A stretch of 64,000 bases of DNA from Bacteroidales bacterium (GTDB lineage Bacteria > Bacteroidota > Bacteroidia > Bacteroidales > FEN-979), in contig JADHVQ010000001.1 of the NCBI GenBank assembly GCA_016783905.1, forward strand, positions 51,670 through 115,669, read 5' to 3'. The notes beneath the pieces were generated by a model, which was given only the letters and a program-made list of their open reading frames with translations, was not told the DNA's origin and did not search any database. The position numbers were made by a program, and so were the translations under genes. Each line of letters opens with the position of its first letter. Position 1 is the stretch's first letter. Shown here piece by piece: positions 27,461 to 61,648 of the stretch.

Positions 27461-27482
27461 TTGGCAGTGGGCAGTCAGCAGT
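27461..27482. repeat. heptamer array TNGGCAG x3 between convergent ndk and protease genes
   Basis: ttggcag tgggcag tcagcag. The 13-mer ttggcagtgggca recurs at 33085-33097. Confidence 0.8.
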
Positions 27483-36967: not shown

Positions 36968-37825
36968 ATGAAAACCCTCGATTATATTCTTTTTCTCGCC
37001 GGATGCCAGTCTGGTGAAGATGATTAAAATTACAACTCCCACCCCACGGTGGTCTGTAGCACATAGTCGTTATCTGATGCGTCCTGCACGGATTGGTTGT
37101 CGTAATTCAGCGTAAAACCGAGGTTGATGAAGAAATCCGGCGAATTTGCCGACATTAACTGGTTTGTCCGCTCCAGTCGGGTCTCTAACTCCAATTGGAG
37201 TAATACGAAGAAACTGGCCAGGATGGATAAAGGATCGAAAACCGAAGGAGAAACGCTGTTCAATTAGCTCTGCAAAACCTGCCATGGCCCTGATGCCAAA
37301 GGGTATCTGGCTATCGGATTGAATAACCCGGATTTCTTCCTTGCAGCCTCATTGGAATATGTTTACTATACCCTGTTCAGAGGACGTATGAACACCGCGA
37401 TGCCTTCGTGGTCGATGCTGAGTGATTGGGAGGTGGCGGATTTGTTGGCGTTCATTAGTAGGATGGGAGATTTGTCAACAAAGCATGAGGCATTAGCCAT
37501 GAGGCATTACCCCTCCCCCGGCCCTACCCTGGGGAGTAAAGAGCGTGGGAAGGAGCTCTTTGGCACCTTGTGTGCCGAGTGTCATCGCACACATGGAACC
37601 GGTCTGAAAGCACCTTCTCTGAACGACCAGGTATTCCTCAATGCGGCTACCAACAGCTTCCTGCTTGCCACCATCACCCTGGGGCGGCCGGGGACAGCTA
37701 TGCCGGTGTGGGTGGATTCGACTGCACACCACAGGGCACTGACAGCTCAGCAGCGGAAAGACTTGGTTGCATTTATCAGGTCATGGCAACTGGTTCATTT
37801 TAAACAGAGTTTCGACTCGCATTGA
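36968..37825 (+). pseudogene. decayed di-haem c-type cytochrome lipoprotein gene (four in-frame stops)
   Basis: One frame carries the lipoprotein signal MKTLDYILFLAGCQ, then stops at 37025 TAA, 37064 TAG, 37103 TAA and 37265 TAG. The last stop interrupts GETLFN*LCKTCHG. A second CAECH haem motif lies downstream. The 3' end overlaps ppc. Confidence 0.6.
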
Positions 37826-40346
37826 TATTCCCATATAAAGATCGTGTCACTATTTTCTCGTATACCTTTTTATTTCTTGTATTCTGACTGATTTTTTGTA
37901 GAGCATACTGCTGGATAACCAATAAGGGTAATACGATTTTCTCCCTGATTTTAATCGATTCCCTGGATATGGGTTCTTCTTCCATCAAAATGCCGAAATC
38001 TGAAATACGTAACAACATCTCCTTAGATAGTTTGTATTCTTCATGAAGTACATTCCAGAAATCTTTGTATTCAATATCTTCTCGCATGTACGCAGTCAAC
38101 TCAAAATTAGATTTGGATAACGACATCATGCTGTTGAGAACAAGGGCTTTAAAGAATGGGATTTCCTCGAACAGGTTCTTTAACTCTTCTAGTTTGCCTT
38201 TTTTTATCAGGGCTTGTATTGCCGTTCCGGTGCCGAAATAACCAGGGACATTTTGTTTCAACTGACTCCATGCACCAACAAAGGAAATAGCCCTCAAGTC
38301 TATCATATCCAGTTTTTTACTGTTGCCTCTTTTGCCGGGTCTACTCCCTATATTAGCCCTGTCATAGTACTTGAGTGTACTTTTGTTTTCAAGATATGGA
38401 ATGAACATTTTATGGATTTTCAGGTCATTATATTTTTCAAAACTAATGGTAGCCAGCTCTTCTATTAATTGCCTTGATTCTGCAGAGATGACATTTCCCT
38501 TCCCTAAAAAATTCCTGGATAATCCTGCTGTAAGAAGTTGCTCACAATTATGAATGAATTGTTCTTTAGTTCCATATTTACTTGTAATCGTTTGCCCCTG
38601 GATGGTCAATTGGATTTCATGATTTGCAATGTCATTGCTTTGTGCGGCGTAGAAGCGATGGGATTTACCACCACCACGGGCAGGAGGTCCGCCTCGTCCA
38701 TCAAAGAAAATGGCCTTGATATTATATTCTTCACAAACGGCAGATAAATTTTCTTTCGTTTTAAATATTGACCAGTTTGCTTTTAAATATCCCCCATCCT
38801 TGGTTCCGTCAGAAAAACCCAACATAATGGTTTGTTTATCGTTACGTTGAAAAATGTGGGATCTGTATTCCGGAAGATCAAATAGCTCTCGCATGGTCGA
38901 CTCAGAACTACTCATACCCTTCATCGTCTCAAAAAGCGGGATAATATCAAAGGTTATTTTTCTATCCTCCCAGCCACACCACCTGAATAAACCATAAACA
39001 AATAGAACTGAAAATACATCCTCAGAATTACTAATAATGTATCGATTACAACCCTCTTCTCCGTTTTTACTTTGAATGGTTTTTAGTTGGGAAATATTCC
39101 TGATCGTATCCTTAATGATCTCTTCCTTAAAGCTGTGCGCATTGGCACGAATATTTTTATGTAGCAGAATATGGATCAATTCATCTTTTCCAAGTTCATT
39201 TAAACTCTCTGAGATAAGCCTTTCTTTTTTAAATATAGCTTCTATCACTTTCTTGTGTATGCAATGGTCCTGCCTGATATCAAGTGTCGCAAAATGTGTC
39301 CTAAATAGTTTGACTTTATCTATAAAATCATCAAGATCTTTCAGATACAGGTTATGGTATTTATCTACTAATAATCTTCTGACAGCATAAAGCGGATTTT
39401 TGATCTCTTCATAGAGAATGAATTTGTCTGGATTAAACATCATATCGTATAACCTGTCTCTAAGATCATTGAGGGTATCTTCTACCTCCCTGAAGGTGAG
39501 TTTTTGTTGTAAACTCTTCACATCATCGTAATAACATTTCATCAACGTCATTCGTAATTCATCTGCCACAGCCATAGTGATTTCGGAGGTAACAAAAGGA
39601 TTACCATCCCTGTCTCCTCCAGGCCAAAATCCCAGCTTAATAATGTTGGGATTATCAAAATCATTATTTCTGATATTCTCTTTGATATAGGAATATAGAT
39701 CGCCTACCGCATGATAGTAAACATCTCTAAGAAAGTAGATAATATTCTTTGCTTCATCAAGGGGTGTAGGTTTTTTTGAGTTAATCAATGAAGTTAATCC
39801 CAGTTGCTGTAACTTCAAGTCTATCTCATCTATTTGGTTACCGGCAATAAGCGATCTCAAAGCAGTGATGATATCTAAAACTGAAGGTGGATAGAACTGT
39901 GTAGGATGAGCTGTAAATACGATTCGAGCACTGAAGGTGGATAATTTCTCTGATATACTGTCCCAACTCTTTTTACTATCTAATAATTGAAAGAAATCTT
40001 TGATAGATAGATTATTGCCAAGTTCCTGAATATTCGTATATGCAGCATCTTCTACACTGTCATAGAGTACAACTTGCCGTTCAACGTACTGAATGACTCT
40101 GAACATGAAATCAATTTTATCTTGTTCCAGCCCAATGTTTGCATTGTTGCGAAAAAAGGAATCAAGAATTTCCTGAGGAGTTTGTCCTGATTCAAGCCCT
40201 TGTTTACATAGATGATAAAGCACCGGAATAAGCATTCCAACCTTACTTTCTCTATTGTACGGCAGGTTTAGGAACAAGCTATTATAAATATCGAACTTGT
40301 TTTTAACCAATTTCCCAAACTCTTCAACTCTTTTTGATTGATACAT
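37800..40346 (-). CDS. ppc: phosphoenolpyruvate carboxylase
   Basis: 848 aa. VFTAHPTQ, GFSDGTKDGGY and FFDGRGGPPARGGG motifs. Much lower GC than the flanks. Confidence 0.9.
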   Translation of the reverse strand: MYQSKRVEEFGKLVKNKFDIYNSLFLNLPYNRESKVGMLIPVLYHLCKQGLESGQTPQEILDSFFRNNANIGLEQDKIDFMFRVIQYVERQVVLYDSVEDAAYTNIQELGNNLSIKDFFQLLDSKKSWDSISEKLSTFSARIVFTAHPTQFYPPSVLDIITALRSLIAGNQIDEIDLKLQQLGLTSLINSKKPTPLDEAKNIIYFLRDVYYHAVGDLYSYIKENIRNNDFDNPNIIKLGFWPGGDRDGNPFVTSEITMAVADELRMTLMKCYYDDVKSLQQKLTFREVEDTLNDLRDRLYDMMFNPDKFILYEEIKNPLYAVRRLLVDKYHNLYLKDLDDFIDKVKLFRTHFATLDIRQDHCIHKKVIEAIFKKERLISESLNELGKDELIHILLHKNIRANAHSFKEEIIKDTIRNISQLKTIQSKNGEEGCNRYIISNSEDVFSVLFVYGLFRWCGWEDRKITFDIIPLFETMKGMSSSESTMRELFDLPEYRSHIFQRNDKQTIMLGFSDGTKDGGYLKANWSIFKTKENLSAVCEEYNIKAIFFDGRGGPPARGGGKSHRFYAAQSNDIANHEIQLTIQGQTITSKYGTKEQFIHNCEQLLTAGLSRNFLGKGNVISAESRQLIEELATISFEKYNDLKIHKMFIPYLENKSTLKYYDRANIGSRPGKRGNSKKLDMIDLRAISFVGAWSQLKQNVPGYFGTGTAIQALIKKGKLEELKNLFEEIPFFKALVLNSMMSLSKSNFELTAYMREDIEYKDFWNVLHEEYKLSKEMLLRISDFGILMEEEPISRESIKIREKIVLPLLVIQQYALQKISQNTRNKKVYEKIVTRSLYGNINASRNSV

Positions 40347-40461: not shown

Positions 40462-41862
40462 TCAAATCGTTGAGAGGTACGCATGCATTGACCGGGCGGA
40501 TATTCGTCCGGCGCCCATGGCAAGGATGACGGTGGCTGCTCCGGTAACGATATCGCCTCCAGCCCAGACCCTGTCCAATGAGGTTTTACCGGTGCTTTCA
40601 TCCACCACAATGGTTCCATTTTTGGAAACTTCAAGTTCGGGAGTCGTTTGTGGGATGATGGGATTGGGACTATTCCCGATAGCTACAATGCATGCATCCA
40701 TCGGCATGATAAATTCTGAACCGTCAATCCGGATCGGCCGGCGGCGTCCTGACTGATCAGGTTCACCCAGTTTCATTCTTGAGCACTCGATCTCTTTCAG
40801 CCACCCGTTCTCATCGCCGATCAATTTTTCGGGGAGGGTTAGAAAGTGAAAAATCACCCCCTCCTCTTCCGCATTTTCAAATTCCTCGAGCCGCGCAGGT
40901 AACTCCTGCTGTGATCTCCGGTAGACAATATAGACCTCTTCGGCACCCAACCGGAGTGCAGTCCGGGCACAGTCCATCGCTACGTTCCCCCCTCCTACTA
41001 CAGCGACTCTTTTATGTCTTTTCACCGGTGTATAGGACTTCGGGTATTCAAATCCTCTCATCAGGTTCACCCGTGTAAGGTATTCATTGGCGGAATAAAC
41101 GCCATTCAGGTTCTCACCCGGTATCTCCATGAACCAGGGTAATCCTGCCCCCGTGCCGAGAAATACGGCATCGTACTCTTCCAGTATCTTCTTCAGTGAC
41201 CTGGTCTTTCCGACCACATAATTGCAGACGAGCTTCACACCGAGTTGTTGAAGATAGTTGATCTCTCTGCTCACTACCTTCCCGGGCAGACGAAACTCCG
41301 GGATGCCATAGGTAAGCACCCCCCCGGGCTCGTGCAAGGCCTCGACCATCGTTACATCATGTCCAGCCAGGATCAGATCGCCGGCCACGGTGATTCCGGC
41401 CGGACCGGATCCAATCACCAGCACCTTTTTGCCGGTATTCAGTTTAATCTCCGGCAACTCAATCTTACCCTGTGAGGCTTCCCATTCCGCTGCAAACCGT
41501 TCCAGGCGGCCGATGGCAACCGGTGTCCCTTTCTTCCCCAGGATACATTTGATCTCGCACTGCTCCTCCTGAGGACAAACCCTTCCGCAAACCGCCGGCA
41601 GACAGTTTTTCTCTTTTAAAATCTTGATCGACCCGGAAAAATCCTCAGCAGCAATGCAGCGGATGAAGCCGGGAATGTCAATTTCAACGGGACAGCCATC
41701 GATGCAGACAGGCTTCTTACAATCAATGCATCTCTTTGCCTCTTTCACAGCCATCTCTGGTGTATATCCCAGAGCTACTTCCGCAAAGTTTCTACGCCTG
41801 ATGTAGGGCGGCTGTTTGGGCATTTCAACCCGTTCGAATCTCGAGGTTTTCTTTTCTGCCAT
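40462..41862 (-). CDS. nfnB: GltD-like NADPH-dependent oxidoreductase, NfnB-type large subunit
   Basis: Start trimmed to MAEKKTSRFERVEMPKQPP (ATG 41862, GGAGGA 7 nt upstream). N-terminal 2x[4Fe-4S] Cys motifs (CIDCKKPVCIDGCP, CGRVCPQEEQCE). GSGPAG and GGGNVAMD dinucleotide folds. Confidence 0.85.
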   Translation of the reverse strand: MAEKKTSRFERVEMPKQPPYIRRRNFAEVALGYTPEMAVKEAKRCIDCKKPVCIDGCPVEIDIPGFIRCIAAEDFSGSIKILKEKNCLPAVCGRVCPQEEQCEIKCILGKKGTPVAIGRLERFAAEWEASQGKIELPEIKLNTGKKVLVIGSGPAGITVAGDLILAGHDVTMVEALHEPGGVLTYGIPEFRLPGKVVSREINYLQQLGVKLVCNYVVGKTRSLKKILEEYDAVFLGTGAGLPWFMEIPGENLNGVYSANEYLTRVNLMRGFEYPKSYTPVKRHKRVAVVGGGNVAMDCARTALRLGAEEVYIVYRRSQQELPARLEEFENAEEEGVIFHFLTLPEKLIGDENGWLKEIECSRMKLGEPDQSGRRRPIRIDGSEFIMPMDACIVAIGNSPNPIIPQTTPELEVSKNGTIVVDESTGKTSLDRVWAGGDIVTGAATVILAMGAGRISARSMHAYLSTI

Positions 41863-41863
41863 G

Positions 41864-42694
41864 TTATATTCCTCCACATCCAGAATGATGAACAAGAAAC
41901 GCTTCTTCACCAACATATTGTTGTCTTCTCTTTGCAAGCTCTTCCCAATCGACCAATCTTCCGTCGAACTCGGGACCGTCGACACAGGCAAACTTCATCT
42001 CCCCGTTAACTGTACAGCGGCATACACCACACATCCCTGTTCCGTCGATCATGATCGTATTCAGGGTAACCATCACAGGGACATCGAAATGGGCATACTC
42101 CTGTGTGGTTTTGTACGACAGGGTCATGCATCCGTTAGCAATCACCCGGTTGGGTTTGATCCCTGTCTCCCTGATGATATCATCGCCTTTTTTAATGTGT
42201 CCTTTATAACCGTAACTGCCGTCTCGGGTCAGTTTGATCACCCGATCACTGTATCGTGCCAGTTTCTCTTCCCAGTAAAGCAAATTTTTACTACGCCCCT
42301 CCATGATGGTGATCACCTTATTGCCTTTTTCTTTTAATGCCCTGACGACAGGAAAGATCGATCCCATTCCGAAACAACCGCCGATGCAGATCACGGTCCC
42401 GAAATGGTCTATCTCCGTAGGCTTACCAAGCGGGCCGACAACAGTGGGTATTGCATCCCCCGGTTCCAGCAAAGCCAGTCTACCCGTGGAAGTGCCCACT
42501 TCCATGAAAACAATGGACAATGTTCCCGTTTCATGGTCCCAGTCGGCCGCTGAAAGGGGGATCCGTTCCGAACCTTCCCCGGCATGGACGATTACAAATT
42601 GTCCCGGCTGAATCTCTTCCACCACATCCGGTGCATGAACCACCAGCAGGTGAAGGTTCGGGACGATCATTTTCCGTTCAACAATTTCAAACAT
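41864..42694 (-). CDS. nfnA: PyrK-like FAD/[2Fe-2S] subunit, NfnA-type small subunit
   Basis: 276 aa. Ferredoxin-reductase fold with C-terminal Cys cluster GMCGVCRCTV...FACVDGPEF. Lies 1 nt from nfnB. Confidence 0.85.
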   Translation of the reverse strand: MFEIVERKMIVPNLHLLVVHAPDVVEEIQPGQFVIVHAGEGSERIPLSAADWDHETGTLSIVFMEVGTSTGRLALLEPGDAIPTVVGPLGKPTEIDHFGTVICIGGCFGMGSIFPVVRALKEKGNKVITIMEGRSKNLLYWEEKLARYSDRVIKLTRDGSYGYKGHIKKGDDIIRETGIKPNRVIANGCMTLSYKTTQEYAHFDVPVMVTLNTIMIDGTGMCGVCRCTVNGEMKFACVDGPEFDGRLVDWEELAKRRQQYVGEEAFLVHHSGCGGI

Positions 42695-45017
42695 GATCCC
42701 GCTTTAAGTTTACGTAACAAGGATTACTATCGAATTCCAGTTCACCGTTTATTTTAGATAGATATACATATCCAGGAAGGACGTTTTTACGGATGGCCGC
42801 TTTGAATTTCATCTTCTTCCCCGGAGCATGTAACTGGATAAGTTCCCCGGATTTCAGCTCTAATTTCCCGGCATCATAGGGATTGAGAATGAGATGACCG
42901 GGCAACGTCAGCTCCCCGAGGGCGGGTATCTCCCTTCCAAGGTTCGAATTGCAGAATGCATGTGGATTTTTCTCCTGGATCAGGATATAGGGGAATCTTT
43001 TACCCGGAGAAGATGGCTTTCCCCCGGCAGATGAAACTGGTTTCTTTGAACCCATCACCGGAATGTGGAAGTTATTGGAAAGGGATTCTTTGATCGATTT
43101 CTGTGAAAATCCGCTCCTTTTTATCTTCGCTGAGCCTGCTATGCCTGAGAATATTTCGATATGGGAACGGGCATAACCATGTGGAACTGCAACCGCTTTA
43201 TATTTTTTAATTCTTCCGTTGTCAGTCAAAAGAGAGCCGCCCGTTTCCCCCCATAAAGACGAAGGTAAAATCAGATCCGGATTTAATCCTGCCGGGGATG
43301 GAAATGCGTTCTGATAAATCACATGTTTTACCTTGGGTCTTTTCGTGAATGGGGCATCTCCAACCAAATAGAGCAGGTCGATCTTCCCCTCTTTGATTTG
43401 TTGCAGGATCTCCTCAACCGGTTTCATCCTGATGAGCGATAACATGCCGTAAAGGTTGCCATACGGGTTGGGCATAAAGAGCCCGGATCCGGTGAGGTCG
43501 GCAATCTGCCTGATTTTATCCAGCATCGTGATGCAGCCACTCAACGAGACAATCTGGGGACCCACGACAAGGATGCCGTTCTTTGATTTTTTCATCGATC
43601 CGGCCAGTTCATGGATCTCAGGTGTGTTACACTGGCCGTTTTTCAGACAGGTGATTATGTCGTTCAGATACGCTATCTCCTCACCCGGAGCCGGAACGAA
43701 CCGGTGGCGGGCAAAACGTGAAGTGGTATCCGTGATCCATCCCAGCTGATAATATGGGACACCCTTCTCTGCTGCAGATTTGATTGCAAGTGTCAACGGG
43801 GCATAATTATAATTCCCGTTCAGGTATGCTGAAAAAATGGCACCGGACTGATCCAGGTCCTGCAAAGAGACTGAATCCTGGGCCAGCTTCAGGTATGCCG
43901 TCATTTTTTCATCCAGGCACGATGAAGTAACCACACCGCCCTTTAAGATGTGTTCGCTAAAATATCCTGCTGTGTAAATCTCTTCCAGCGTCAGGGATGG
44001 AGAGATAAATAGGGCCGTACGTTTGGGTGAAATACCCGCTGTAATCTCCCTGGCTTTTTCCATGGCAAAGTCCCATGAAACAATCCCATAGCCTTCAGGA
44101 TACCAGTACTCGGGTTCGAGGATCCGATCTGTTCTGTTAACAAGTTCGCTCAAACAGAAGCGGCCTTTTACACAAAGATCTCCTCCGGATTCATGTGCTT
44201 TGCCCGGTGGGATCGTGCCAACAATCTTATCTTTCAGGGTCAGCACCTGGATGTCGCAATTCAGGCTGCAAAGCGGGCAAACGGAAGGTTCAATCTTTTC
44301 AGGATCCCCCCACCATTTCCTGCTTTTTTCCGACATGGCACCGGTAGGGCAAACGGAAACGCATGCACCACAGAACTCACAGTTCGCGTGGATATGGGTT
44401 TCGTCGAAGGCAGGGCCAATTGCGGTCTGCTTTCCCCGTTGTTTCAGGGAAAGCACGGAGCTCTTTCGGTACTCATTGCAGATCCTTACACACCGGCCGC
44501 AATAGATGCACAGGTTATAATCTCTGTCAAAGAACGGATCATACTTCTCCAGAGGCAGATCCCGGTACAGTCCGGGCAGTGTGAGATCATCGATTCCAAA
44601 TTGTTCTACGATCCTCTGCAGTTCACAGTCGTTATCCTTCGGGCACCATCGGCACCCGGTTGTGATCCCTACTTTTCTGATCGTACCCTGAAAGACTTTA
44701 CACCCTTCAACATCATCACACATCATACAGGCGGCCGGATGTTCGCTTAAGATTAACTGGATCATCTCGCGGCGGATCTCCTGCAACACGTTTGTATCGG
44801 TGCGGACGATCATACCCTCTTCAGCCATGGTGGTGCACGAGGTCGGGTACCCGTCTCTTCCTTCAATTTCGACGACACACAACCGGCACCCTCCATAGGG
44901 CGTCAGTTCCGGATGTGCACAGAGAGAAGGAATGTCGATGCCGTGCTTTGTCGCGACATCAAGTACAGTGGCGGGTTTGCCAATGGTAATTTTCCGGTTG
45001 TCAATGGTCAGGTTCAT
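42687..45017 (-). CDS. NuoG / formate-dehydrogenase-alpha-fold iron-sulfur subunit without recognisable catalytic Cys/Sec-His motif
   Basis: N-terminal 2Fe-2S (CAHPELTPYGGCRLC..SC), HPAACMMCDDVEGC (HxxxCxxCx5C), extra GCRWCPKDNDC, two ferredoxin-type motifs, CPLCSLNCD...C molybdopterin-type 4Fe-4S, and a long Mo-oxidoreductase-like body with a C-terminal barrel. The position of the FdhA C/U-H motif reads VTSSCLDEK. Confidence 0.75.
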   Translation of the reverse strand: MNLTIDNRKITIGKPATVLDVATKHGIDIPSLCAHPELTPYGGCRLCVVEIEGRDGYPTSCTTMAEEGMIVRTDTNVLQEIRREMIQLILSEHPAACMMCDDVEGCKVFQGTIRKVGITTGCRWCPKDNDCELQRIVEQFGIDDLTLPGLYRDLPLEKYDPFFDRDYNLCIYCGRCVRICNEYRKSSVLSLKQRGKQTAIGPAFDETHIHANCEFCGACVSVCPTGAMSEKSRKWWGDPEKIEPSVCPLCSLNCDIQVLTLKDKIVGTIPPGKAHESGGDLCVKGRFCLSELVNRTDRILEPEYWYPEGYGIVSWDFAMEKAREITAGISPKRTALFISPSLTLEEIYTAGYFSEHILKGGVVTSSCLDEKMTAYLKLAQDSVSLQDLDQSGAIFSAYLNGNYNYAPLTLAIKSAAEKGVPYYQLGWITDTTSRFARHRFVPAPGEEIAYLNDIITCLKNGQCNTPEIHELAGSMKKSKNGILVVGPQIVSLSGCITMLDKIRQIADLTGSGLFMPNPYGNLYGMLSLIRMKPVEEILQQIKEGKIDLLYLVGDAPFTKRPKVKHVIYQNAFPSPAGLNPDLILPSSLWGETGGSLLTDNGRIKKYKAVAVPHGYARSHIEIFSGIAGSAKIKRSGFSQKSIKESLSNNFHIPVMGSKKPVSSAGGKPSSPGKRFPYILIQEKNPHAFCNSNLGREIPALGELTLPGHLILNPYDAGKLELKSGELIQLHAPGKKMKFKAAIRKNVLPGYVYLSKINGELEFDSNPCYVNLKRDHV

Positions 45018-46891
45018 TCTTCCTTCCTTGAAGTGATTACAATAGCATTTCCTGCAATGGCATCATACCTGCACACATCATAGCAGGCGCGGCATTTGAT
45101 GCATTTTTCTTTATCCAGGTTGTGTGGTTCGGAGCGGGGTCCGATGATGGCTCCCGTCGGACAAACGCTTACACATAACTGGCATCCGGTACATTTCTCC
45201 CGGATCACCGAATATTCTATCAGAGAACTGCAAACCAGCGCCGGGCAGTAATATTCGTTCAGGTGCTCCACATATTCCGATCTGAAGTAACGAAGTGTGG
45301 TAAGAACAGGATTCGGGGCGGTTTGCCCCAGGCCGCACAGCGAGGTTGATTTAACGAGTTTTGCCAGGGATTCAAGTTTATCCAGGAATTCCGGTTCTGC
45401 ATCCCCGCGGCAAATTTTTTCCAGTATTTCGACCATATGGCGGGTACCGACCCTGCATGGCGTACATTTCCCACACGACTCTTTCTGAATGAAATCGAGA
45501 AAATACCTCGCTATATCAACGACACAGGTATCCCGGTCCATGACGATCAATCCGCCTGAACCCATGATGGAGCCAACCGATGCTAGTGTTTCGTATGTCA
45601 CCGGCGTATCCAGAAGTTCCTCCGGGATGCATCCGCCTGAAGGGCCTCCGGTCTGAACTGCCTTAAATTCTTTTTGTGGTCCACCACCGATGTCAAAAAT
45701 AATTTTCCGCAACGAAGTTCCGAGCGGAACTTCAATCAGTCCGGATCGCCTTATCTTGCCGACGAGTGAAAAGGTTTTGGTTCCGAAGTTGCCTTCCACA
45801 CCAAATTGCCTGTACCATTGTGATCCGTTTCTCAGGATGTGAGGAACGGTACTAAGGGTTTCCACATTATTGATGATGGTTGGGTTTTGATGCAATCCCG
45901 AAACAGCAGGAAACGGTGGCCGGGTTCGGGGCATTCCCCGCTTCCCTTCTACCGAGTGAATGAGTGAGGTCTCTTCCCCGCAAACAAAGGCACCCGCACC
46001 CTCTTTGATCCGGATGTCAAACGAAAAATCAGAACCGAGGATTTTTTCCCCGAGCAGGCCGTATTGATCCATTTGGCTTAATGCATGCCTCAACCGGATG
46101 ATGGCCAGTGGATATTCTGCGCGAATGTAGATGATGCCGTGAGAAGCACCAATGGCATATCCGGCGATCAGCATCCCTTCCAGCACGGCATGCGGATCAC
46201 TTTCAATCAACAGACGATTCATAAAGGCGCCCGGATCACCTTCATCCGCATTGCAGATCAGGTATTTTTCATCGGACACTGTATTCCGGCATGTACGCCA
46301 CTTTATCCCGGTGGGGAATCCTGCTCCTCCTCTTCCGCGAAGACCTGCATCCGTGATCTCATCGATGATCGCGTCAGGAGTTTTCTGCAACGCTTTTGAA
46401 AGGCCCTCATACCCACCATTGGCAATGTAATGATGAATATTTTCAGGATCTATCAGACCACAGTTCTTTGTGACTATCCTCACCTGTGATTGCAGCATCG
46501 GCTGATCAAAGAATCTGGGTACACCATCGAAAGAGTTTGTCCCGAAATGACCAAGCACCTTTCCTTTATGGCACTCTTTTTCAAGCAGATACTTGCGGAG
46601 AATTGCTTCGGCCGACTTCTCATCCACGTTTCCGAAAGAGACACGGGGATTGCCGAATGCACTGATGTCCATAATGGGTTCGAGGTAACAGGTCCCTATA
46701 CACCCAACCTCAACCAGCTTTGCCGAAAGATGATACTTCTTTAGTGTCGCTTTTACAGCTTCCCTGACCTTGTCCGCTCCTGCAGCTTTCCCACATGAAG
46801 CCATCCCCAGATAAATGACAGGCTCCTTCCTGGTGATGAGTGCATTCCATTCGGCGGCACTTTTCTTTTTGAGTTTCGTGAAGTTATTCAT
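45014..46891 (-). CDS. NuoF-like NADH/FMN subunit of HydB/Bfu type (with extra N-terminal 2Fe-2S and C-terminal 2x[4Fe-4S] domains)
   Basis: GRGGAGFPTGIKW, NADEGDPGAF, ESCGKCTPCRVG. N-terminal thioredoxin-like SCGKAAG..GCIGTCYLEP. C-terminal CTGCQLCVSVCP and CIKCRACYDVC. Confidence 0.9.
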   Translation of the reverse strand: MNNFTKLKKKSAAEWNALITRKEPVIYLGMASCGKAAGADKVREAVKATLKKYHLSAKLVEVGCIGTCYLEPIMDISAFGNPRVSFGNVDEKSAEAILRKYLLEKECHKGKVLGHFGTNSFDGVPRFFDQPMLQSQVRIVTKNCGLIDPENIHHYIANGGYEGLSKALQKTPDAIIDEITDAGLRGRGGAGFPTGIKWRTCRNTVSDEKYLICNADEGDPGAFMNRLLIESDPHAVLEGMLIAGYAIGASHGIIYIRAEYPLAIIRLRHALSQMDQYGLLGEKILGSDFSFDIRIKEGAGAFVCGEETSLIHSVEGKRGMPRTRPPFPAVSGLHQNPTIINNVETLSTVPHILRNGSQWYRQFGVEGNFGTKTFSLVGKIRRSGLIEVPLGTSLRKIIFDIGGGPQKEFKAVQTGGPSGGCIPEELLDTPVTYETLASVGSIMGSGGLIVMDRDTCVVDIARYFLDFIQKESCGKCTPCRVGTRHMVEILEKICRGDAEPEFLDKLESLAKLVKSTSLCGLGQTAPNPVLTTLRYFRSEYVEHLNEYYCPALVCSSLIEYSVIREKCTGCQLCVSVCPTGAIIGPRSEPHNLDKEKCIKCRACYDVCRYDAIAGNAIVITSRKEE

Positions 46892-47342
46892 AGTTGCTCC
46901 ACATTTCCTTAAGTTTAATAATGTTTACCTTGCTGTGAATGTCCTCGTCGATCTTCACAACGGGCGCTAGTGCGCAGCATCCGAGGCAGGCGACCCTGTT
47001 CAGGTCGAACCGCATATCGGAAGTACACTCGCCCGATTTGACCTCCAGATCCCGCTCACAGGTCTCCAGCAGGATTTCACCTCCTACAACATGACAGGCA
47101 GTACCCAGGCATATGCTGATGGAGTGTCTGCCCGGTTCACTGAACCGGAATTGGGAGTAAAAAGAAGCTACACCAAAAACCTGACTTTCAGTCAATTGTA
47201 AATAGTCAGCCACCGTTTCAACGATCTCAGGTGAGATATATCCGAGTTCTCCCTGGGCTTTCTGGAGAAGAGGGATCAAACTGCCCTCTTCCTTCGGATA
47301 GGTACACATATATTCTGTAAAACAGGTGATACGTTCTTTCAT
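46884..47342 (-). CDS. NuoE-like thioredoxin-fold [2Fe-2S] subunit (HydC type)
   Basis: 152 aa. CLGTACHVVGG and CLGCCALAPVV Cys pairs. Confidence 0.9.
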   Translation of the reverse strand: MKERITCFTEYMCTYPKEEGSLIPLLQKAQGELGYISPEIVETVADYLQLTESQVFGVASFYSQFRFSEPGRHSISICLGTACHVVGGEILLETCERDLEVKSGECTSDMRFDLNRVACLGCCALAPVVKIDEDIHSKVNIIKLKEMWSNYE

Positions 47343-47353
47343 TGTCTCTCTTT

Positions 47354-48613
47354 TTAATGGGTACTCAACTTGAAAAATATACAGTCCGATAAATCAGCTT
47401 CCCCGCGGGCACAATCCTGTGCAAATGTCTCGCAGGATGGCGCCCCGCACAAGCCACAATCTTTTTTGGGAAGCTTAACTAAGATCCTCTCCTTCTGGAT
47501 CATCCGTTTGATGGAGGTGCCAATATCTGAAGCCAGCGCTCTTGTGGGACGCGGAAGAACATGCCTTCCCAGGAAATAGTATTGCTCTTTGTATTTTTTC
47601 AGAACCTCCTGTTCGTTAAACGATTTCGGTTCTCCGAAATTTTTTTCGAGTATGATGGCAGTATGCCGGGCGATGTATGGATTCTCAACGCAAAAGATAC
47701 CTCCCATACACCCCTGGGTACAGGTAAATGCTTCGATGTAATCGATGTTTCTCAGTTTTTCGGTTTCAATGTCGTTGAGGACATTCATGATGTTCTCAAT
47801 ACCCACGACCGTAAGGTGTCTTTCAGCATCCAGGTACTGTGATACATGGCCTATCTCTCCCCAGCCTCTGCCATAATAAAAATAGTCATCCGTGCTTTTC
47901 GGTTTCTGGCCCTTATTCACCATCATTAACTCCGGAAGTATCATGTTGTAGATATCTTTAATCGCGATAGCGCCATCAAACCAGGATTTCTCTTTCTCAG
48001 CCGGCTGCTTGATGGAGACTACCATAGCAGGGCAGGATGTAATGTATATAGCGCCGATTTTGCTCATACTAATACCCAGTTTCTCTGCATATTCATGTTT
48101 TGCCTCCTTGGCCGTGATCTCGCGGGGGACATCAAAGGTGGAGATCAGCTCCATTAAATTTGGGTAATTAACCTGTATCAGTCTGATCAAGGCAGGGCAA
48201 AATGAGCTGATGATCGGTCTCTCTTTTGGATTGGTTTTTATATGCTCAGAGATAGCAAACATCAGTTCATGGCAAACCCTGGAACTATCAACAACGGCAT
48301 CGAAACCAATATTTTTCAATGCCTGATGAACCAGACTGGGATGAATAGCTGATCCGAATTGGGTGTAAAGTGTTCGGGAGGGAATGGCAAGTTTGAATTC
48401 AAATTTCTCGAAGTCACTGATTTCGTCAATCATGGGAACAAACACATGCTCAGGACAAACATTGATGCATGCACCACAATCAACACAAAGGTCGTCGTAA
48501 TAGGTGATCGTCCCGTGTCTTAATCTGATGGCCTCGGTTGGACATGCTCTGAGGCACTTCATCCTCCCGGTGCACTTTTCGGGAATAATCACATGTGAAT
48601 GATAATACTTCAT
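47354..48613 (-). CDS. [FeFe]-hydrogenase H-domain-like iron-sulfur protein with variant H-cluster motifs (putative sensory/regulatory, not a canonical HydA)
   Basis: 419 aa. N-terminal CLRACP / CVDCGACINVCP. L1-like SSFCP, L2-like TSCPAMVVS, L3-like EAFTCTQGCMGG. C-terminal CGLCGAPSCETFAQDC Fe-S motif. Confidence 0.75.
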   Translation of the reverse strand: MKYYHSHVIIPEKCTGRMKCLRACPTEAIRLRHGTITYYDDLCVDCGACINVCPEHVFVPMIDEISDFEKFEFKLAIPSRTLYTQFGSAIHPSLVHQALKNIGFDAVVDSSRVCHELMFAISEHIKTNPKERPIISSFCPALIRLIQVNYPNLMELISTFDVPREITAKEAKHEYAEKLGISMSKIGAIYITSCPAMVVSIKQPAEKEKSWFDGAIAIKDIYNMILPELMMVNKGQKPKSTDDYFYYGRGWGEIGHVSQYLDAERHLTVVGIENIMNVLNDIETEKLRNIDYIEAFTCTQGCMGGIFCVENPYIARHTAIILEKNFGEPKSFNEQEVLKKYKEQYYFLGRHVLPRPTRALASDIGTSIKRMIQKERILVKLPKKDCGLCGAPSCETFAQDCARGEADLSDCIFFKLSTH

Positions 48614-49813: not shown

Positions 49814-50368
49814 TTATTCGTTTTCAGGCGGTGATAGCGATAACATGCCTACATCCCTGATCATCTCAGCAAAACACACAGCTATGTCATCAATCATGTC
49901 AGAAGAGACAATTTTGATCCTGGAAATGGAAGATTTTCGCCGCTGATTAAAGTACTCCTCAAGGATGGTGATCTTTTCGGGACTCAGTTGCTTCCTTTCA
50001 TCAACCGGGAAAAATCCGAACGCCACGTAGACCCATGTACGGCTTTTCTCCAGTTCTTTCATCAGGCTATCCACCTTGCATTTCTCATCGCAGCCGGTAC
50101 ACATCATTAAACCAGCCAGTTCACTGAACTGAACTACTTCCCCGCAAACCTTACATTTCAGATTAAAACGGATCGATTGAGCCACCTCCATGATATTCCA
50201 GAAATGTTCACCTTCACGATACTCTTCCAGGGGCGGCCATTCTCCAACGGAAAAATAGGTATTTGTTTTGCGGCATCTGAAACAGTTCTCGGTAACGATA
50301 TACCCTTGTTGGACATTGATCATTTCCCAGTTATGGCTGCATAGTTCTTCCTTCATAGATACTTTCAA
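49814..50368 (-). CDS. Cys-rich (zinc-ribbon-like) hypothetical protein, first gene of the redox operon
   Basis: 184 aa. CFRCRK, CKVCGE and CTGCDEKC pairs. No family recognised. Confidence 0.5.
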   Translation of the reverse strand: MKVSMKEELCSHNWEMINVQQGYIVTENCFRCRKTNTYFSVGEWPPLEEYREGEHFWNIMEVAQSIRFNLKCKVCGEVVQFSELAGLMMCTGCDEKCKVDSLMKELEKSRTWVYVAFGFFPVDERKQLSPEKITILEEYFNQRRKSSISRIKIVSSDMIDDIAVCFAEMIRDVGMLSLSPPENE

Positions 50369-50702: not shown

Positions 50703-51770
50703 TTATCTCTTCACAAATTTCCCGGAGTAAATGGAACTACTGTTTGAACCCCTGACGGTATAGAGGTAAATGCCTGAAGGCAGGTCATACAGGGCAATGC
50801 GCTGTTGTCCGGACCCATTACAGACCATGGTTTTACACGTTTTTCCCAGCATGGTGCGGATCTCAATCCTCCCGGTAAAGCCGGATCCAGTCTCTATGAT
50901 AACATACGATTCAGCCGGGTTGGGATATACCGTGATGGCATTGGTTTCGGCCTCTTCTGCTACTCCTTGAGTTGGCTTGGCTTTCAGGAAGATCACATTG
51001 TCGACAATCCCTTTCAGGTCACTTCTCATCTCCATCTCCGCCAGGTAGAACCCCGCTTCATCATCATTCGACCACCATGTGTACATGTCTGTAGTATCTA
51101 TCTCCACCTCCTGGAAGTTCCATTGACCAACGATATAAAGGAATGTACAATCCAGTTGCACCTGGTGTTCATGAACCCTTAATGCTTCATAGGTCCCGAT
51201 TGGAATAGTGATCGAGCCCCAGGCATCCACCTCTATATCAGCAATGGTGGTGAATTGCATGCGAACTGAATCAACCGGTGGTGTGGGGCCGGGAATTGTG
51301 AATTTAAATGTGCTTGTGTCTGACCTGATATCCCCGTACGCTACCGGAAATTCTGCAACCTTCATTTTTGGATTCACACGGATGATGATCGTAGTATCAG
51401 ACAATTCTTCCATTTTCCAGACCATTCCTATCACGGATAATTCGGAATTATCGCGGTAAAACATCACATACATACTGTCTAAACCCAGTTGTAATAAAGC
51501 AAAGTTGGCATCAGGAAACAGGGAGCCATAGGGGGTCCAGTCCGGTTGGAGGAACTTAATCGTGTCGACCCAGTCTTCATGGAGGGTGGAAAAATCCCAC
51601 ACCTGGTTAGGGCCGGCAAGGCCAGGTCCGATGGTTCCTGCAGGAAGGGTATCTACGGCCTGGATGACCGTCGACCCCGAACCGAGAATGTCGTTGTTTG
51701 TAATCACGATCTGGGCCTGGAGGATGCCTGACCCCAGAATAATTACCAGTGCAAGTAAAAGCTTTTTCAT
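50703..51770 (-). CDS. secreted protein with T9SS C-terminal sorting domain (function unknown)
   Basis: 355 aa. Signal peptide MKKLLLALVIILGSGILQA. C-terminus ITVYPNPAESYVIIE...LPSGIYLYTVRG. Confidence 0.7.
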   Translation of the reverse strand: MKKLLLALVIILGSGILQAQIVITNNDILGSGSTVIQAVDTLPAGTIGPGLAGPNQVWDFSTLHEDWVDTIKFLQPDWTPYGSLFPDANFALLQLGLDSMYVMFYRDNSELSVIGMVWKMEELSDTTIIIRVNPKMKVAEFPVAYGDIRSDTSTFKFTIPGPTPPVDSVRMQFTTIADIEVDAWGSITIPIGTYEALRVHEHQVQLDCTFLYIVGQWNFQEVEIDTTDMYTWWSNDDEAGFYLAEMEMRSDLKGIVDNVIFLKAKPTQGVAEEAETNAITVYPNPAESYVIIETGSGFTGRIEIRTMLGKTCKTMVCNGSGQQRIALYDLPSGIYLYTVRGSNSSSIYSGKFVKR

Positions 51771-53925: not shown

Positions 53926-55890
53926 TTACTTCACAACCGTAATCTTCGCCACCTTCAATCCCTGCCTGGTTACCACTTTGACGAGGTACATACCAGGTAA
54001 GAGGTTAGATACATCAATTTCCGTTTTTAAGGCGTTGATTTCCTGGATAGCCAGCTCCTGTTGACCCAGGTAAGTGGAGATTTCAATATGGTCTATTGGG
54101 CAATCACTGATCACCTTCAACATATCTGTTGCCGGATTGGGAAACACGGACAACGTTGAATGTTGAGGTTCAGGGATGGAGGTGATCACGATTTCCACCG
54201 TATCAGATGGAATGGACTCACAAAGAAAAAAAGAATAAATATCATAATTAAATATCGCGGTTATGTAATATTGAACCGCTGGAATGCTCAACGGAGGATC
54301 ACTGTCAATATATACCGTATCGGTCACCGGCTCGGGGGTTAGCAGGGCAAATGACATCATATTATCAACACTACGATACACATTGTATCCTATAAGCTCT
54401 CGATTTTCTGACTCTTGTGAGACAAGAAGCTCTTCTCCTCTTTTCGTTGTATCAGGAATCAGGATCCGGAGGGTGATCAGGTAGTCGCCGGTTGTAGTAG
54501 GAGTAAGCGCAGAATAATTGGGAAATGAACCAAAAAGGGATACTCCCTGCGGACCGGAATTGTCGGAGGAAATACGGGGATAGGCATCATCTGGGGTGTT
54601 TCCCATGGGTTGGATAAAGATCGCGACCGTTCCGCCACTCAGTCCGCTGATGCTGTCGAGGGGAACTTCCGTCTCCCATTGATCATCTCCGGTGGTATAG
54701 AATGGTCCGACAGTGGCAACCTCAGTATGGGTCAGCCAGTCTACCACATGGATCCTGTATTTCCAGATGCCGTAGTTGGCTAAAGAAGCATGGTGAAAGT
54801 CGATGGATTGCAACAGGGCATACTGATAGGCAGATAAGTCAAATAATATTCCATACACCCAATCGAAATATTGCAGAGTTGTTACAACCGGATTTCCATC
54901 ATGATAGGCGATCTCTTCCTGAATCCATGACTGAGGAGAACCCTGGTCACAGATTGGTGGGTGCCATGAAAGGATAACATCTTGACCGTTATAAATCCCG
55001 GATGGGGAGAGGGGAGGATTGCATATAGGTACCACACAAATATTGTCAAGATACCAGTTGGCGATATCCTCACTGTTCTCCCCAAATGCCCGGAACCGGA
55101 TTTTCATGATCCCTCCCCCGGCATCCGGAATCTCATAGTGGTAACTTTCCCACCCAAACGATCCGGTGTTGTCAAATAGGTCAATCAGGTGCCACATCTC
55201 ATTATAAAAAAGTTCCACTGCCAGTTTCTCTGTGCCTGTTGAATTGATGTCATCCAACCTGATATCGAAATCAACATGGAATGTGGCACAAGTAAAAGGC
55301 CATGACATGATTTGAATATTCATCATGATATACGTGTAATTGGTATCGGCAGGGATGCCCGTAAAAGTGGCAGCAGGAGCTGGATACCCTTCAACGGTCG
55401 TGATAGACCAGTTTCCCTGACCGGGATGGAAACTCCAGTCATGGTATGCAAATGATGCCTGATCCCAATATTCACAAAATATCGGAGGGATACTGCACAT
55501 AATGGTAATCTCTGCTGGACCTTCCTGATCTGATTCATCAAAAAAACCGGGATAACCGTACATGGTCAGGTCGTAATAAGCCGATACGGAATAGGTGTGG
55601 TCCCCGTGTATGACCGTAAAATCGTAAGCCCAGGTAGTATCGTGCCCTGATATGTATGCCAGGTAAGCGCCATCCCGGTAAATCCGGTATCCGATAAGTC
55701 CGGGAGGTGTCACAGGTTGTGGTTCGTCCCAGGCAAGGTAAACGGAACATTCTACCCCTGCAACTTGCAGGTTCGTTGGAGGATATAAGGTGTACAAAGG
55801 GGTCTGAGCCTGAAGCGCTATACCCATTAACATGAGAAGGATTAATAACGGCCCTCTCACAGGTGCTGATATGGATGGTATATAAAACAT
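53926..55890 (-). CDS. secreted protein with T9SS C-terminal sorting domain (function unknown)
   Basis: Start trimmed to MFYIPSISAPVRGPLLILLMLMGIALQAQ (ATG 55890), because the longer ORF overlaps the OmpA-like gene. C-terminus LSVFPNPATDMLKV...LPGMYLVKVVT. Confidence 0.7.
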   Translation of the reverse strand: MFYIPSISAPVRGPLLILLMLMGIALQAQTPLYTLYPPTNLQVAGVECSVYLAWDEPQPVTPPGLIGYRIYRDGAYLAYISGHDTTWAYDFTVIHGDHTYSVSAYYDLTMYGYPGFFDESDQEGPAEITIMCSIPPIFCEYWDQASFAYHDWSFHPGQGNWSITTVEGYPAPAATFTGIPADTNYTYIMMNIQIMSWPFTCATFHVDFDIRLDDINSTGTEKLAVELFYNEMWHLIDLFDNTGSFGWESYHYEIPDAGGGIMKIRFRAFGENSEDIANWYLDNICVVPICNPPLSPSGIYNGQDVILSWHPPICDQGSPQSWIQEEIAYHDGNPVVTTLQYFDWVYGILFDLSAYQYALLQSIDFHHASLANYGIWKYRIHVVDWLTHTEVATVGPFYTTGDDQWETEVPLDSISGLSGGTVAIFIQPMGNTPDDAYPRISSDNSGPQGVSLFGSFPNYSALTPTTTGDYLITLRILIPDTTKRGEELLVSQESENRELIGYNVYRSVDNMMSFALLTPEPVTDTVYIDSDPPLSIPAVQYYITAIFNYDIYSFFLCESIPSDTVEIVITSIPEPQHSTLSVFPNPATDMLKVISDCPIDHIEISTYLGQQELAIQEINALKTEIDVSNLLPGMYLVKVVTRQGLKVAKITVVK

Positions 55891-55948
55891 ATGGGAATAT
55901 AATTTGGATGAAAAAAAGTATGAACTACAGGCATATACTTGCCCGATA

Positions 55949-55956
55949 CAAATATA
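55949..55956 (-). promoter_or_regulatory. candidate -7 box (TATATTTG)
   Basis: Minus-strand TATATTTG, ~58 nt upstream of ATG 55890. Confidence 0.35.
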
Positions 55957-56002
55957 TAAAAATAACCTAATAGATGCAAGAAAAAAATATCGTAGATTCC
56001 GC

Positions 56003-61606: not shown

Positions 61607-61648
61607 TTGTGAAAAGCAAGCATTAATTATTCACAAAAATTGTATGCC

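Follow-up and report, generated by a model that had tools for sequence, protein, structure and literature searches.

What does a hydrogenase-like protein do when it retains every cysteine that should hold the catalytic cluster, but has lost residues that make this cluster work in known enzymes? The question is posed by a gene in a 64,000-nucleotide stretch of DNA from a Bacteroidales bacterium (GenBank assembly GCA_016783905.1, contig JADHVQ010000001.1, positions 51,670 to 115,669), hereafter called the window. This gene encodes an iron-sulfur (Fe-S) protein with the H-domain of [FeFe] hydrogenases, which we call the HydS-like protein. It is preceded by a gene for a DRTGG domain fused to a GHKL ATPase, and is followed by genes for an enzyme built from NuoE-, NuoF-, NuoG- and NfnS/L-like subunits. 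We find that the HydS-like protein belongs to the Group D (M2e) lineage of [FeFe] hydrogenases as a divergent member, and that it stands for a widespread, uncharacterised variant of this group with an eroded active-site environment and an apparent non-hydrogenase target. It is most likely to be the Fe-S input of a kinase module that would control the adjacent Nfn-type bifurcating complex.

Placement in the Group D lineage

The HydS-like protein aligns end to end with TamHydS, a putative sensory hydrogenase from Thermoanaerobacter mathranii (BLASTP, 32% identity, E 3e-79, residues 1-414 against 1-407). The TamHydS sequence was rebuilt from the coding sequence in Table S1 of the supplementary information of PMC13104023, and it carries the right residue at 23 of 23 published positions. 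Among solved structures the best matches are group A enzymes, with E-values of about 1e-16 (5.8e-16 for the best), and no structure from Group C or D was found in the copy of the Protein Data Bank that was searched. An AlphaFold2 model computed with 111 homologs (mean predicted local distance difference test score of 88) has the [FeFe]-hydrogenase fold, giving TM-scores of 0.60-0.67 against solved structures at 15-19% identity. None of the NCBIfam hydrogenase models reaches its cut-off for this protein, the scores being 91.5 for FeFe_hydrog_B1 (cut-off 450) and 71 for FeFe_hydrog_A (cut-off 406).

Group D proteins are described as having two N-terminal cluster motifs, an H-domain without Cys299 (CpI numbering), Ser or Thr in place of Met353, a C-terminal Cx2Cx4Cx16C motif that is also described for Group C, and no PAS domain (PMC8163306). 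The HydS-like protein is placed in this lineage by its full-length alignment with TamHydS, its C-terminal motif (C386x2C389x4C394x16C411, plus an extra C401), the Thr at the Met353 position, the lack of any Pfam match to a PAS family at E <= 0.01, and the adjoining GHKL gene. An earlier reading of this DNA from its sequence alone had noted a likeness to sensory [FeFe] hydrogenases, which the TamHydS alignment bears out. However, the same sequence-only reading held that the domain composition differs from that of known sensory enzymes, and this view must be abandoned because Group D proteins such as TamHydS have exactly this layout, also without PAS. The architecture is thus already known, and what is new is the branch.

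The HydDB class C1 is named ‘histidine kinase-linked (putative)’ (PMC5037454). Group D probably corresponds to this class, in which case the HydS-like protein falls in C1, because a Bacteroidales C1 protein adjoins the bifurcating Hnd hydrogenase (PMC7768429) and because the Group D list in the supplementary information of PMC13104023 comes from the same sequence set. In Hydrogenedentota, C1 members include HATPase fusions, and their P1-P3 H-cluster motifs are not recognisable (PMC11406978). Groups E, F and G consist of archaeal minimal or hybrid enzymes and were set aside as not relevant here (PMC11216029).

Cluster ligands and active-site residues

The motif strings of the earlier reading were all found in the HydS-like protein, at coordinates checked codon by codon. 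Each of the four cysteines of the H-cluster is present (C139, C194, C298 and C302), but the three canonical motifs that carry them (TSCCPxW, MPCxxKxxE and ExMxCxxGCxxGG) are all altered. Motif L1 reads ISSFCPALI, in which F138 occupies the position of CpI Cys299 immediately before the cluster ligand C139; this residue is bulky, whereas Ala is usual at the same position in Group D. Motif L2 (YITSCPAMVVSIKQ) contains T192-S193-C194-P-A-M197, such that T192 and S193 occupy the positions of Met353 and Pro354, M197 occupies that of Lys358, the residue next to the distal cyanide in CpI, and no Lys is found at +3 or +4. The change from Pro to Ser (S193) is confined to the window protein, as its closest relatives retain TPC. 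Motif L3 (IEAFTCTQGCMGG) contains E294-A-F296-T-C298-TQG-C302-MGG, with F296 at the position of Met497. The earlier statement that the cluster cysteines are kept while the proton-relay Cys and the conserved Lys are gone is therefore correct. K202, located at +8 in L2, was considered as a replacement for the missing Lys and was ruled out because TamHydS has that Lys too.

The proton pathway specific to Group D is affected as well. In TamHydS, no proton-relay candidate other than Glu252 lies near the azadithiolate, the E252V and E252D variants keep <0.01% of H2 oxidation activity, and the path is proposed to run through Glu252-Glu289-(Ser249)-Asp265 (PMC10407848). The HydS-like protein keeps only Glu289 (as E294); V257 aligns with Glu252, and the residues at TamHydS positions 252, 249 and 265 are Val, Ile and Val. 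Because the protein is without both known proton relays (CpI Cys299 and TamHydS Glu252) and without the cyanide-anchoring Lys, it is probably not a hydrogenase capable of efficient turnover.

The two N-terminal ferredoxin-type clusters that the earlier reading described are only partly as expected. The second motif is complete (C43xxC46xxC49xxxC53P), but the first (C14xxR17xxC20xxxC24P) has three cysteines and lacks the second, which brings the domain to seven cysteines rather than eight. This domain may hold one [4Fe-4S] cluster plus a [3Fe-4S] or three-Cys cluster, and the predicted load of the whole protein is three to four Fe-S clusters.

A widespread branch with shared marks

A word-indexed search returned 1231 relatives at E <= 1e-5, and a genome collection contains 435 relatives in GTDB species representatives; the best 80 of the latter provided the loci compared below. 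Residue counts refer to an alignment of 200 relatives with TamHydS (the clade), and to 136 representatives of the whole superfamily chosen at 50% identity. The best 80 relatives come from Bacteroidota, Aminicenantes/Acidobacteriota, Zixibacteria, Ignavibacteria, Calditrichota, KSB1, Latescibacterota, Eisenbacteria and kin. Together, the two alignments show a clade marked by a QPAEKEKSW motif that follows L2, and in a neighbour-joining tree the sequences bearing this motif form one clade (30 of 158 tips) with TamHydS outside.

Several other positions set the clade apart. At position 17, 185 of 200 clade sequences have Arg, His, Thr or Lys, where TamHydS and 118 of the 136 representatives have Cys. 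The Cys299 position is most often occupied by Phe (125 sequences), Tyr (29) or His (23), compared with Ala in TamHydS. A hydrophobic residue (Ile, Leu, Phe, Val or Met) replaces Glu252 in most of the clade, whereas 97 of the 136 representatives have Glu. The cluster ligands behave differently in that all four cysteines are invariant in the 111-sequence alignment and are kept in 133 of the 136 representatives; the Glu of L3 and a hydroxyl residue at the Met353 position are also conserved in the clade.

Two additional cysteines, Cys308 (47690-47692, just after L3) and Cys401 (47411-47413, in the C-terminal FeS domain), are found together in 131 of 192 clade sequences and are confined to the branch with Arg at position 17. 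The pair could link the two domains, either as a disulfide or by creating a further metal site. The possibility that Cys308 stands in as a ligand for the missing Cys17 was rejected, since about 48 sequences without Cys17 lack Cys308 too.

As a separate observation, fourteen homologs, mostly from metagenome-assembled genomes of Zixibacteria and Ignavibacteria, have His at the Cys298 (CpI Cys499) ligand position. They include those of loci L034, L043, L047, L049-L051, L053-L055, L059, L060, L062 and L072, and the wider branch to which they belong mostly has His at position 17 too.

Loss of the active-site lysine

The Lys that the HydS-like protein lacks is present in TamHydS (SPCAAK), in 148 of the 200 aligned relatives (about 75% of the clade) and in 88 of the 136 representatives, the remainder of which have Arg (14) or another residue (34), so that about 35% are without Lys. 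Judging from these alignments, the loss is not family-wide. It is concentrated in about 50 sequences, a large Bacteroidota subclade that includes the window protein, in which Met, or more rarely Leu, Val or Ile, takes the place of Lys. Members of this subclade are as little as about 60% identical to each other and the four cluster cysteines are invariant throughout; the protein has thus long been functional without Lys in these organisms.

No compensating basic residue was found in the Lys-less subclade. Among residues of the pocket loops, the change that most strongly co-varies with Lys loss is at position 253 (47855-47857, Glu253 here), which becomes Glu, Gln or Gly and is Met, Ala or Val in close relatives that contain Lys. 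In TamHydS, the corresponding loop contains Glu252. The neighbour-joining tree indicates that the covariation may reflect only shared ancestry.

The consequence of losing this residue can be gauged from group A enzymes, in which a basic residue that we take to be Lys358 has been changed to Asn; this result reportedly goes back to Knorzer and colleagues in 2012. According to a passage in a review, in which the residue is called an arginine, the altered enzymes are inactive and all [2Fe] signals are gone (PMC11376134).

A putative kinase module beside a predicted bifurcating enzyme

The HydS-like gene and its DRTGG-GHKL neighbour overlap by four nucleotides, as first reported from the sequence alone, with the stop of the latter and the start of the former sharing ATGA (Table 1). 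The proposal that the DRTGG-GHKL protein is a signalling partner gained considerable support from comparative data. Its gene is located directly upstream of the H-domain gene in nearly all 80 loci, which span >10 phyla. Elsewhere in the superfamily, the DRTGG domain is fused to the H-domain protein itself, either N-terminally (P0125, P0179) or C-terminally (P0128, P0173, P0211, P0217, P0138), and in one protein (P0192) a GHKL domain is fused to the N terminus. These domain fusions, together with the near-universal adjacency, argue for a direct functional link between the H-domain protein and the DRTGG-GHKL protein. The N, G1 and G2 ATP-binding boxes of the GHKL protein are conserved in 60 homologs, and the domain most resembles the anti-sigma-factor kinase SpoIIAB, although its match to the NCBIfam anti-sigma F factor model TIGR01925 (3.6e-15) is below the cut-off. 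The Cys-rich protein encoded by the first gene of the module has a conserved CxH...CxxC...CxxC...CxxCxxxC pattern (C10, H12, C29, C32, C72, C75, C90, C93 and C97) that suggests zinc ribbons or an Fe-S site.

In about 50 of the 80 loci, the same nine genes occur in the same order: Cys-rich protein, small DRTGG protein, DRTGG-GHKL protein, H-domain protein, NuoE, NuoF, NuoG-like, NfnS-like and NfnL/GltD-like. The NuoG-like subunit is most similar among solved chains to FdsA, to the H-cluster-less NiFe-HydA of A. mobile (7t2r, from the NiFe-HydABCSL complex), and to Stn/NfnA chains (8oh5 and 9bov), which come from the NfnA/StnC subunits of Bfu-type transhydrogenases. The products of the last two genes exceed the NCBIfam cut-offs for sulfide/dihydroorotate-dehydrogenase-like and NADPH-dependent GltA-type proteins, respectively. 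The downstream enzyme is therefore most plausibly an NADH/ferredoxin/NADPH oxidoreductase of the Bfu family and of Nfn type, in which the subunits are split (compare PMC11829005 and PMC9304861).

A second set of loci, of the Eisenbacteria/Zixibacteria type, has the DRTGG, GHKL and H-domain genes following genes for HdrA-like, MvhD (FlpD) and GltD-like flavoprotein subunits, with no NuoEFG-like genes (L046, 619-10266; similarly L064, L067, L058 and L048). In addition, two Aminicenantes loci (L015, 1162-11346; L018, 7200-19093) carry two full modules around one NuoE/NuoF/NuoG-like enzyme. The second module in each encodes a canonical Group D protein (Cys17, Ala or Thr at 299, Lys and Glu252), its own DRTGG and GHKL proteins, a PHP phosphatase and an extra HATPase protein. 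The retention of such paralogs side by side suggests that the paired modules respond to different inputs. Across the 80 loci, no open reading frame (ORF) with the canonical group A/B motifs TSCCP or MPCxxKxxE was found within about 9 kb, and the only matches resembling L3 are the HydS-like proteins themselves.

From these arrangements a mechanism can be proposed. Membership of the family, the altered residues, the gene order and the domain fusions are direct observations, and the signal, the target of the kinase and the loss of the diiron subsite are inferred. The Cys-rich protein, the small DRTGG protein, the DRTGG-GHKL kinase and the H-domain protein would together constitute a four-gene signalling module, in which the redox or ligand state of the clusters in the H-domain protein would be passed to the co-translated SpoIIAB-like DRTGG-GHKL ATPase/kinase. 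The target of the kinase would be the enzyme whose genes follow directly, which it would control through phosphorylation of Ser/Thr residues or through a partner switch that involves the small DRTGG protein. The regulated enzyme would be the Bfu-type NADH/ferredoxin/NADPH oxidoreductase formed by NuoE, NuoF, the H-cluster-less NuoG-like subunit and the NfnS/L-like subunits. If the diiron subsite has been lost, the [4Fe-4S]-type clusters that remain would report redox poise (reduced ferredoxin or NAD(P)H) and not H2.

Table 1. Genes of the HydS-like locus and domains of the HydS-like protein, in the direction of transcription (positions in the window).
Feature	Position	Strand	Evidence and remarks
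Cys-rich protein, 184 aa, first gene of module	49814..50368	(-)	No Pfam or NCBIfam family; syntenic in ~55/80 loci
Small stand-alone DRTGG protein, 109 aa	49447..49776	(-)	Pfam; syntenic in most of 80 loci
DRTGG domain fused to SpoIIAB/RsbW-like GHKL ATPase, 273 aa	48610..49431	(-)	Pfam DRTGG + HATPase_c/HATPase_c_2
HydS-like protein, 419 aa, divergent Group D/M2e-type H-domain Fe-S protein	47354..48613	(-)	ORF list, Pfam, TamHydS alignment
N-terminal ferredoxin-like domain (Fer4 dicluster), residues 8-58	48440..48592	(-)	Pfam
H-domain Fe_hyd_lg_C, residues 89-305	47699..48349	(-)	Pfam E 8e-25
C-terminal FeS domain PF04060, residues 381-413	47375..47473	(-)	Pfam E 5e-11
NuoE/BfuC-like [2Fe-2S] thioredoxin-like subunit	46884..47342	(-)	Pfam, NCBIfam; 11 nt after HydS-like stop
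NuoF/BfuB-like flavin mononucleotide and NAD(H) subunit, C-terminal 2x[4Fe-4S] domain	45014..46891	(-)	Pfam, NCBIfam
NuoG/BfuA-like subunit, 776 aa, degenerate molybdopterin-type domain, no H-domain (no Fe_hyd_lg_C)	42687..45017	(-)	Pfam; NCBIfam NuoG/Fdh below cut-off
NfnS/SudB-like subunit, flavin adenine dinucleotide/NAD(P) + [2Fe-2S]	41864..42694	(-)	NCBIfam PRK06222 327 bits, cut-off 220
NfnL/GltD-like NADPH-binding Fe-S flavoprotein	40462..41862	(-)	NCBIfam gltA TIGR01316 590 bits, cut-off 472

The NfnL/GltD-like ORF is listed at 40462-41991, where it opens at a TTG and overlaps the preceding gene by 128 nt; its true start is probably the ATG at 41862, where the conserved protein begins. 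Directly downstream of the operon is a phosphoenolpyruvate carboxylase gene (37800-40346, minus strand), which lies in a GC trough (0.366 at 38-40 kb versus about 0.47 elsewhere). Sorting domains of type IX secretion (Por_Secre_tail, CHU_C) are found in many of the neighbouring proteins, and a PorP/SprF gene is present, which fits an origin in Bacteroidota; the genes related to this secretion system are at 12653-14293, 17988-21056, 21053-22006, 22028-23065, 27482-29182 and 61640-63511.

The presence or absence of the maturation genes hydE, hydF and hydG had been put forward earlier as a check on H-cluster assembly. No match was found in the window by a Pfam scan of ORFs of at least 250 aa outside the operon, with the secreted proteins at 50703-51770 and 53926-56091 read as translations, a result that is uninformative for the whole genome. 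The single radical-SAM match in the window is weak and involves a 261-aa protein.

Weighing the explanations

The central issue is whether the HydS-like protein still carries a diiron subsite. We judge loss in the Lys-less branch, including the window protein, to be slightly ahead of retention, because the Lys-less subclade is stable, an aromatic residue occupies position 299, no link to hydrogenase genes is seen, and a canonical paralog exists alongside in some loci. Combined with the kinase module, these features lead to an explanation in which the protein is a redox sensor without [2Fe], which we regard as a good possibility while stopping short of calling it probable. In a bolder version, the clade would have lost the diiron subsite altogether and would be a bacterial counterpart of Nar1, in which ferredoxin/NAD(P)H poise is sensed and relayed by the DRTGG-GHKL Ser/Thr kinase to switch an Nfn-type bifurcating transhydrogenase; this we consider rather doubtful. 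A number of observations speak against a [2Fe]-less sensor. The four cluster ligands and the L3 Glu are conserved, as is a hydroxyl residue where Met353 would be, and about 75% of the clade keeps Lys; this looks as if the diiron pocket were still under selection, and these features together with the TamHydS precedent are the argument for retention. TamHydS shows that [2Fe] can be bound by this scaffold without Cys299, and the His or Tyr that sister branches have at position 299 could serve to relay protons. Furthermore, the loop that bears on the [2Fe] cavity and Phe138 (residues 231-260) is the lowest-confidence stretch of the AlphaFold2 model, and the 11-nt gap to nuoE equally fits a structural subunit.

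If the pocket is indeed occupied, the protein could be a genuine H2 sensor, with an H-cluster in an odd second sphere (Phe, Thr/Ser, Met, Phe) that binds H2 and splits it slowly. The DRTGG-GHKL protein would then read cluster reduction or a conformational change, as proposed for TamHydS, and would tune an Nfn-type enzyme that shares its ferredoxin/NADH pool with hydrogen metabolism. This explanation, which we keep as a tentative alternative, draws on full-length homology to a protein that itself binds [2Fe]adt and reacts with H2 (PMC8163306), and on the conservation of the ligands, of the L3 Glu and of Thr/Ser in place of Met353. The absence of Lys might not be prohibitive in this scaffold, as about 35% of the 136 representatives are without it and yet 133 keep all four cysteines; likewise, a sensor does not need fast proton transfer. 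However, a hydrogenase gene lies next to the module in 0 of 80 loci, no proton-relay candidate remains, the canonical Group D paralog in the same operon (L015, L018) argues for some other input, and loss of the cyanide-anchoring Lys removes [2Fe] in group A enzymes, as far as the passage cited above goes (PMC11376134).

Two explanations would dispense with sensing altogether. The close spacing to nuoE, in an order kept across phyla, could mean that the HydS-like protein belongs structurally to the Bfu-type complex as an electron-transfer subunit, serving as an extra Fe-S arm or ferredoxin-docking module on the NuoG-like subunit and not as a regulator. Its predicted three to four Fe-S clusters would suit this role, and Bfu enzymes are modular and take extra subunits (PMC11829005). 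The H-domain gene is invariably accompanied by the DRTGG/GHKL genes, occurs fused to sequences for these domains in other loci, and keeps its pairing with the kinase where the neighbouring enzyme is Hdr/MvhD-like, all of which makes a purely structural role quite unlikely. To our knowledge, moreover, HydABC and NfnABC purified from organisms that encode Group D proteins have no such subunit. Still harder to sustain is the idea of the HydS-like protein as the operon's catalytic hydrogenase, through which the complex would be an NAD(P)+/ferredoxin oxidoreductase dependent on H2. The H-domain fold is present, the NuoG-like subunit offers no catalytic site itself, and HydDB recognises a putative glutamate-synthase-linked class, A2 (PMC5037454). 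Nevertheless, all NCBIfam [FeFe]-hydrogenase cut-offs are failed (91 versus 450 bits and 71 versus 406 bits), the proton pathway and the Lys are missing, the NfnS/L-like pair already gives a third substrate site, and TamHydS itself is slower than group A enzymes by a factor of about 1000 (PMC11803613), so that we hold a catalytic function to be highly improbable.

Implications

The branch bears on how the ‘sensory’ hydrogenases of Groups C and D pass on their signal and on whether all of them sense H2. It offers natural loss-of-function variants at the sites that biochemists have mutated (the Cys299 position, TamHydS Glu252, Lys358 and a cluster cysteine) together with a fixed set of partners in the DRTGG, GHKL and Cys-rich proteins. 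If an H-cluster is still assembled in the Lys-less proteins, the prevailing view that Lys is required needs revising. If none is assembled, metagenomic surveys that count such genes as hydrogenases overestimate H2 sensing and H2 metabolism. A sensor without [2Fe] would exemplify the re-use of the hydrogenase fold for signals other than H2, and post-translational control of flavin-based bifurcation. The association of the module with bifurcating enzymes of Nfn-type and Hdr-like kinds, and not with hydrogenases, suggests that it has a general role in regulating low-potential electron flow among anaerobic members of Bacteroidota, Aminicenantes, Zixibacteria and kin.

Comparison with known systems

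The downstream enzyme has close parallels in NfnABC and StnABC of Caldicellulosiruptor and Sporomusa, which share with it a NuoE/NuoF core, a pterin-less NuoG/Fdh-like domain and a GltD/NfnL-like NADPH module (PMC11829005). Unlike these enzymes, the complex described here has separate NfnL-like and NuoG-like parts and an added NfnS-like subunit. On the signalling side, the GHKL domain is of the type found in the SpoIIAB/RsbW partner-switching Ser kinases, although no STAS-type antagonist or sigma factor of those systems is encoded here and DRTGG domains are found in their place. The regulatory [NiFe] hydrogenase HoxBC-HoxJ follows a like logic by coupling a hydrogenase-like sensor to a kinase, but HoxJ is a PAS-containing histidine kinase that works with a [NiFe] sensor.

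Among putative sensory [FeFe] hydrogenases, TmHydS of Thermotoga maritima (Group C, M2f) also combines clusters at the N terminus with an H-domain that lacks Cys299 and a four-Cys cluster at the C terminus, and a regulatory role near bifurcating enzymes has been proposed for it (PMC8163306). It differs in having a C-terminal PAS domain, for which the HydS-like protein has no match. The C1 protein ING2E5A_0849 of Petrimonas mucosa, encoded next to hndABCD, is likewise a Bacteroidales protein, annotated as a GHKL-linked, oxygen-labile putative sensor (PMC5037454, PMC7768429). Its neighbour Hnd is a true bifurcating hydrogenase, whereas the neighbour of the HydS-like protein is an Nfn-type complex without an H-cluster.

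TamHydS shares the most features with the HydS-like protein. Both have a similar length, the same three-part architecture and C-terminal motif, and no PAS domain; both lack Cys299, have a hydroxyl residue for Met353, and keep Arg30, Arg32 and the Asp-Cys pairs around the C-terminal cluster. Their genes both adjoin one for a GHKL ATPase and are followed by NuoE/NuoF-type genes. The differences from TamHydS include several substitutions (Cys17 to Arg, Ala137 to Phe, Lys to Met, Pro to Ser, and Glu252, Ser249 and Asp265 to Val, Ile and Val), to which the conserved QPAEKEKSW motif and the Cys308/Cys401 pair are added. In contrast to TamHydS, the module genes and their immediate neighbours yielded neither a PHP phosphatase nor a regulator of the AraC type. 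The downstream enzyme is HydABC for TamHydS, an association that the literature describes as frequent but not universal for Group D genes and group A bifurcating enzymes, whereas that of the HydS-like protein is without an H-cluster and has NfnS/L-like subunits.

A precedent for an H-domain without [2Fe] comes from Nar1/NARFL, eukaryotic proteins of cytosolic iron-sulfur protein assembly that keep the four cysteines and carry only Fe-S clusters, with no diiron subsite. The sequence-only reading had named the absence of HydEFG together with clustering with such proteins as an outcome that would make the HydS-like protein a plain Fe-S protein. Nar1/NARFL are set apart by their eukaryotic origin, a different N-terminal cluster motif and the lack of a C-terminal PF04060 domain. 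Of the proteins compared here by sequence, the nearest characterised relative of the HydS-like protein is TamHydS of Group D.

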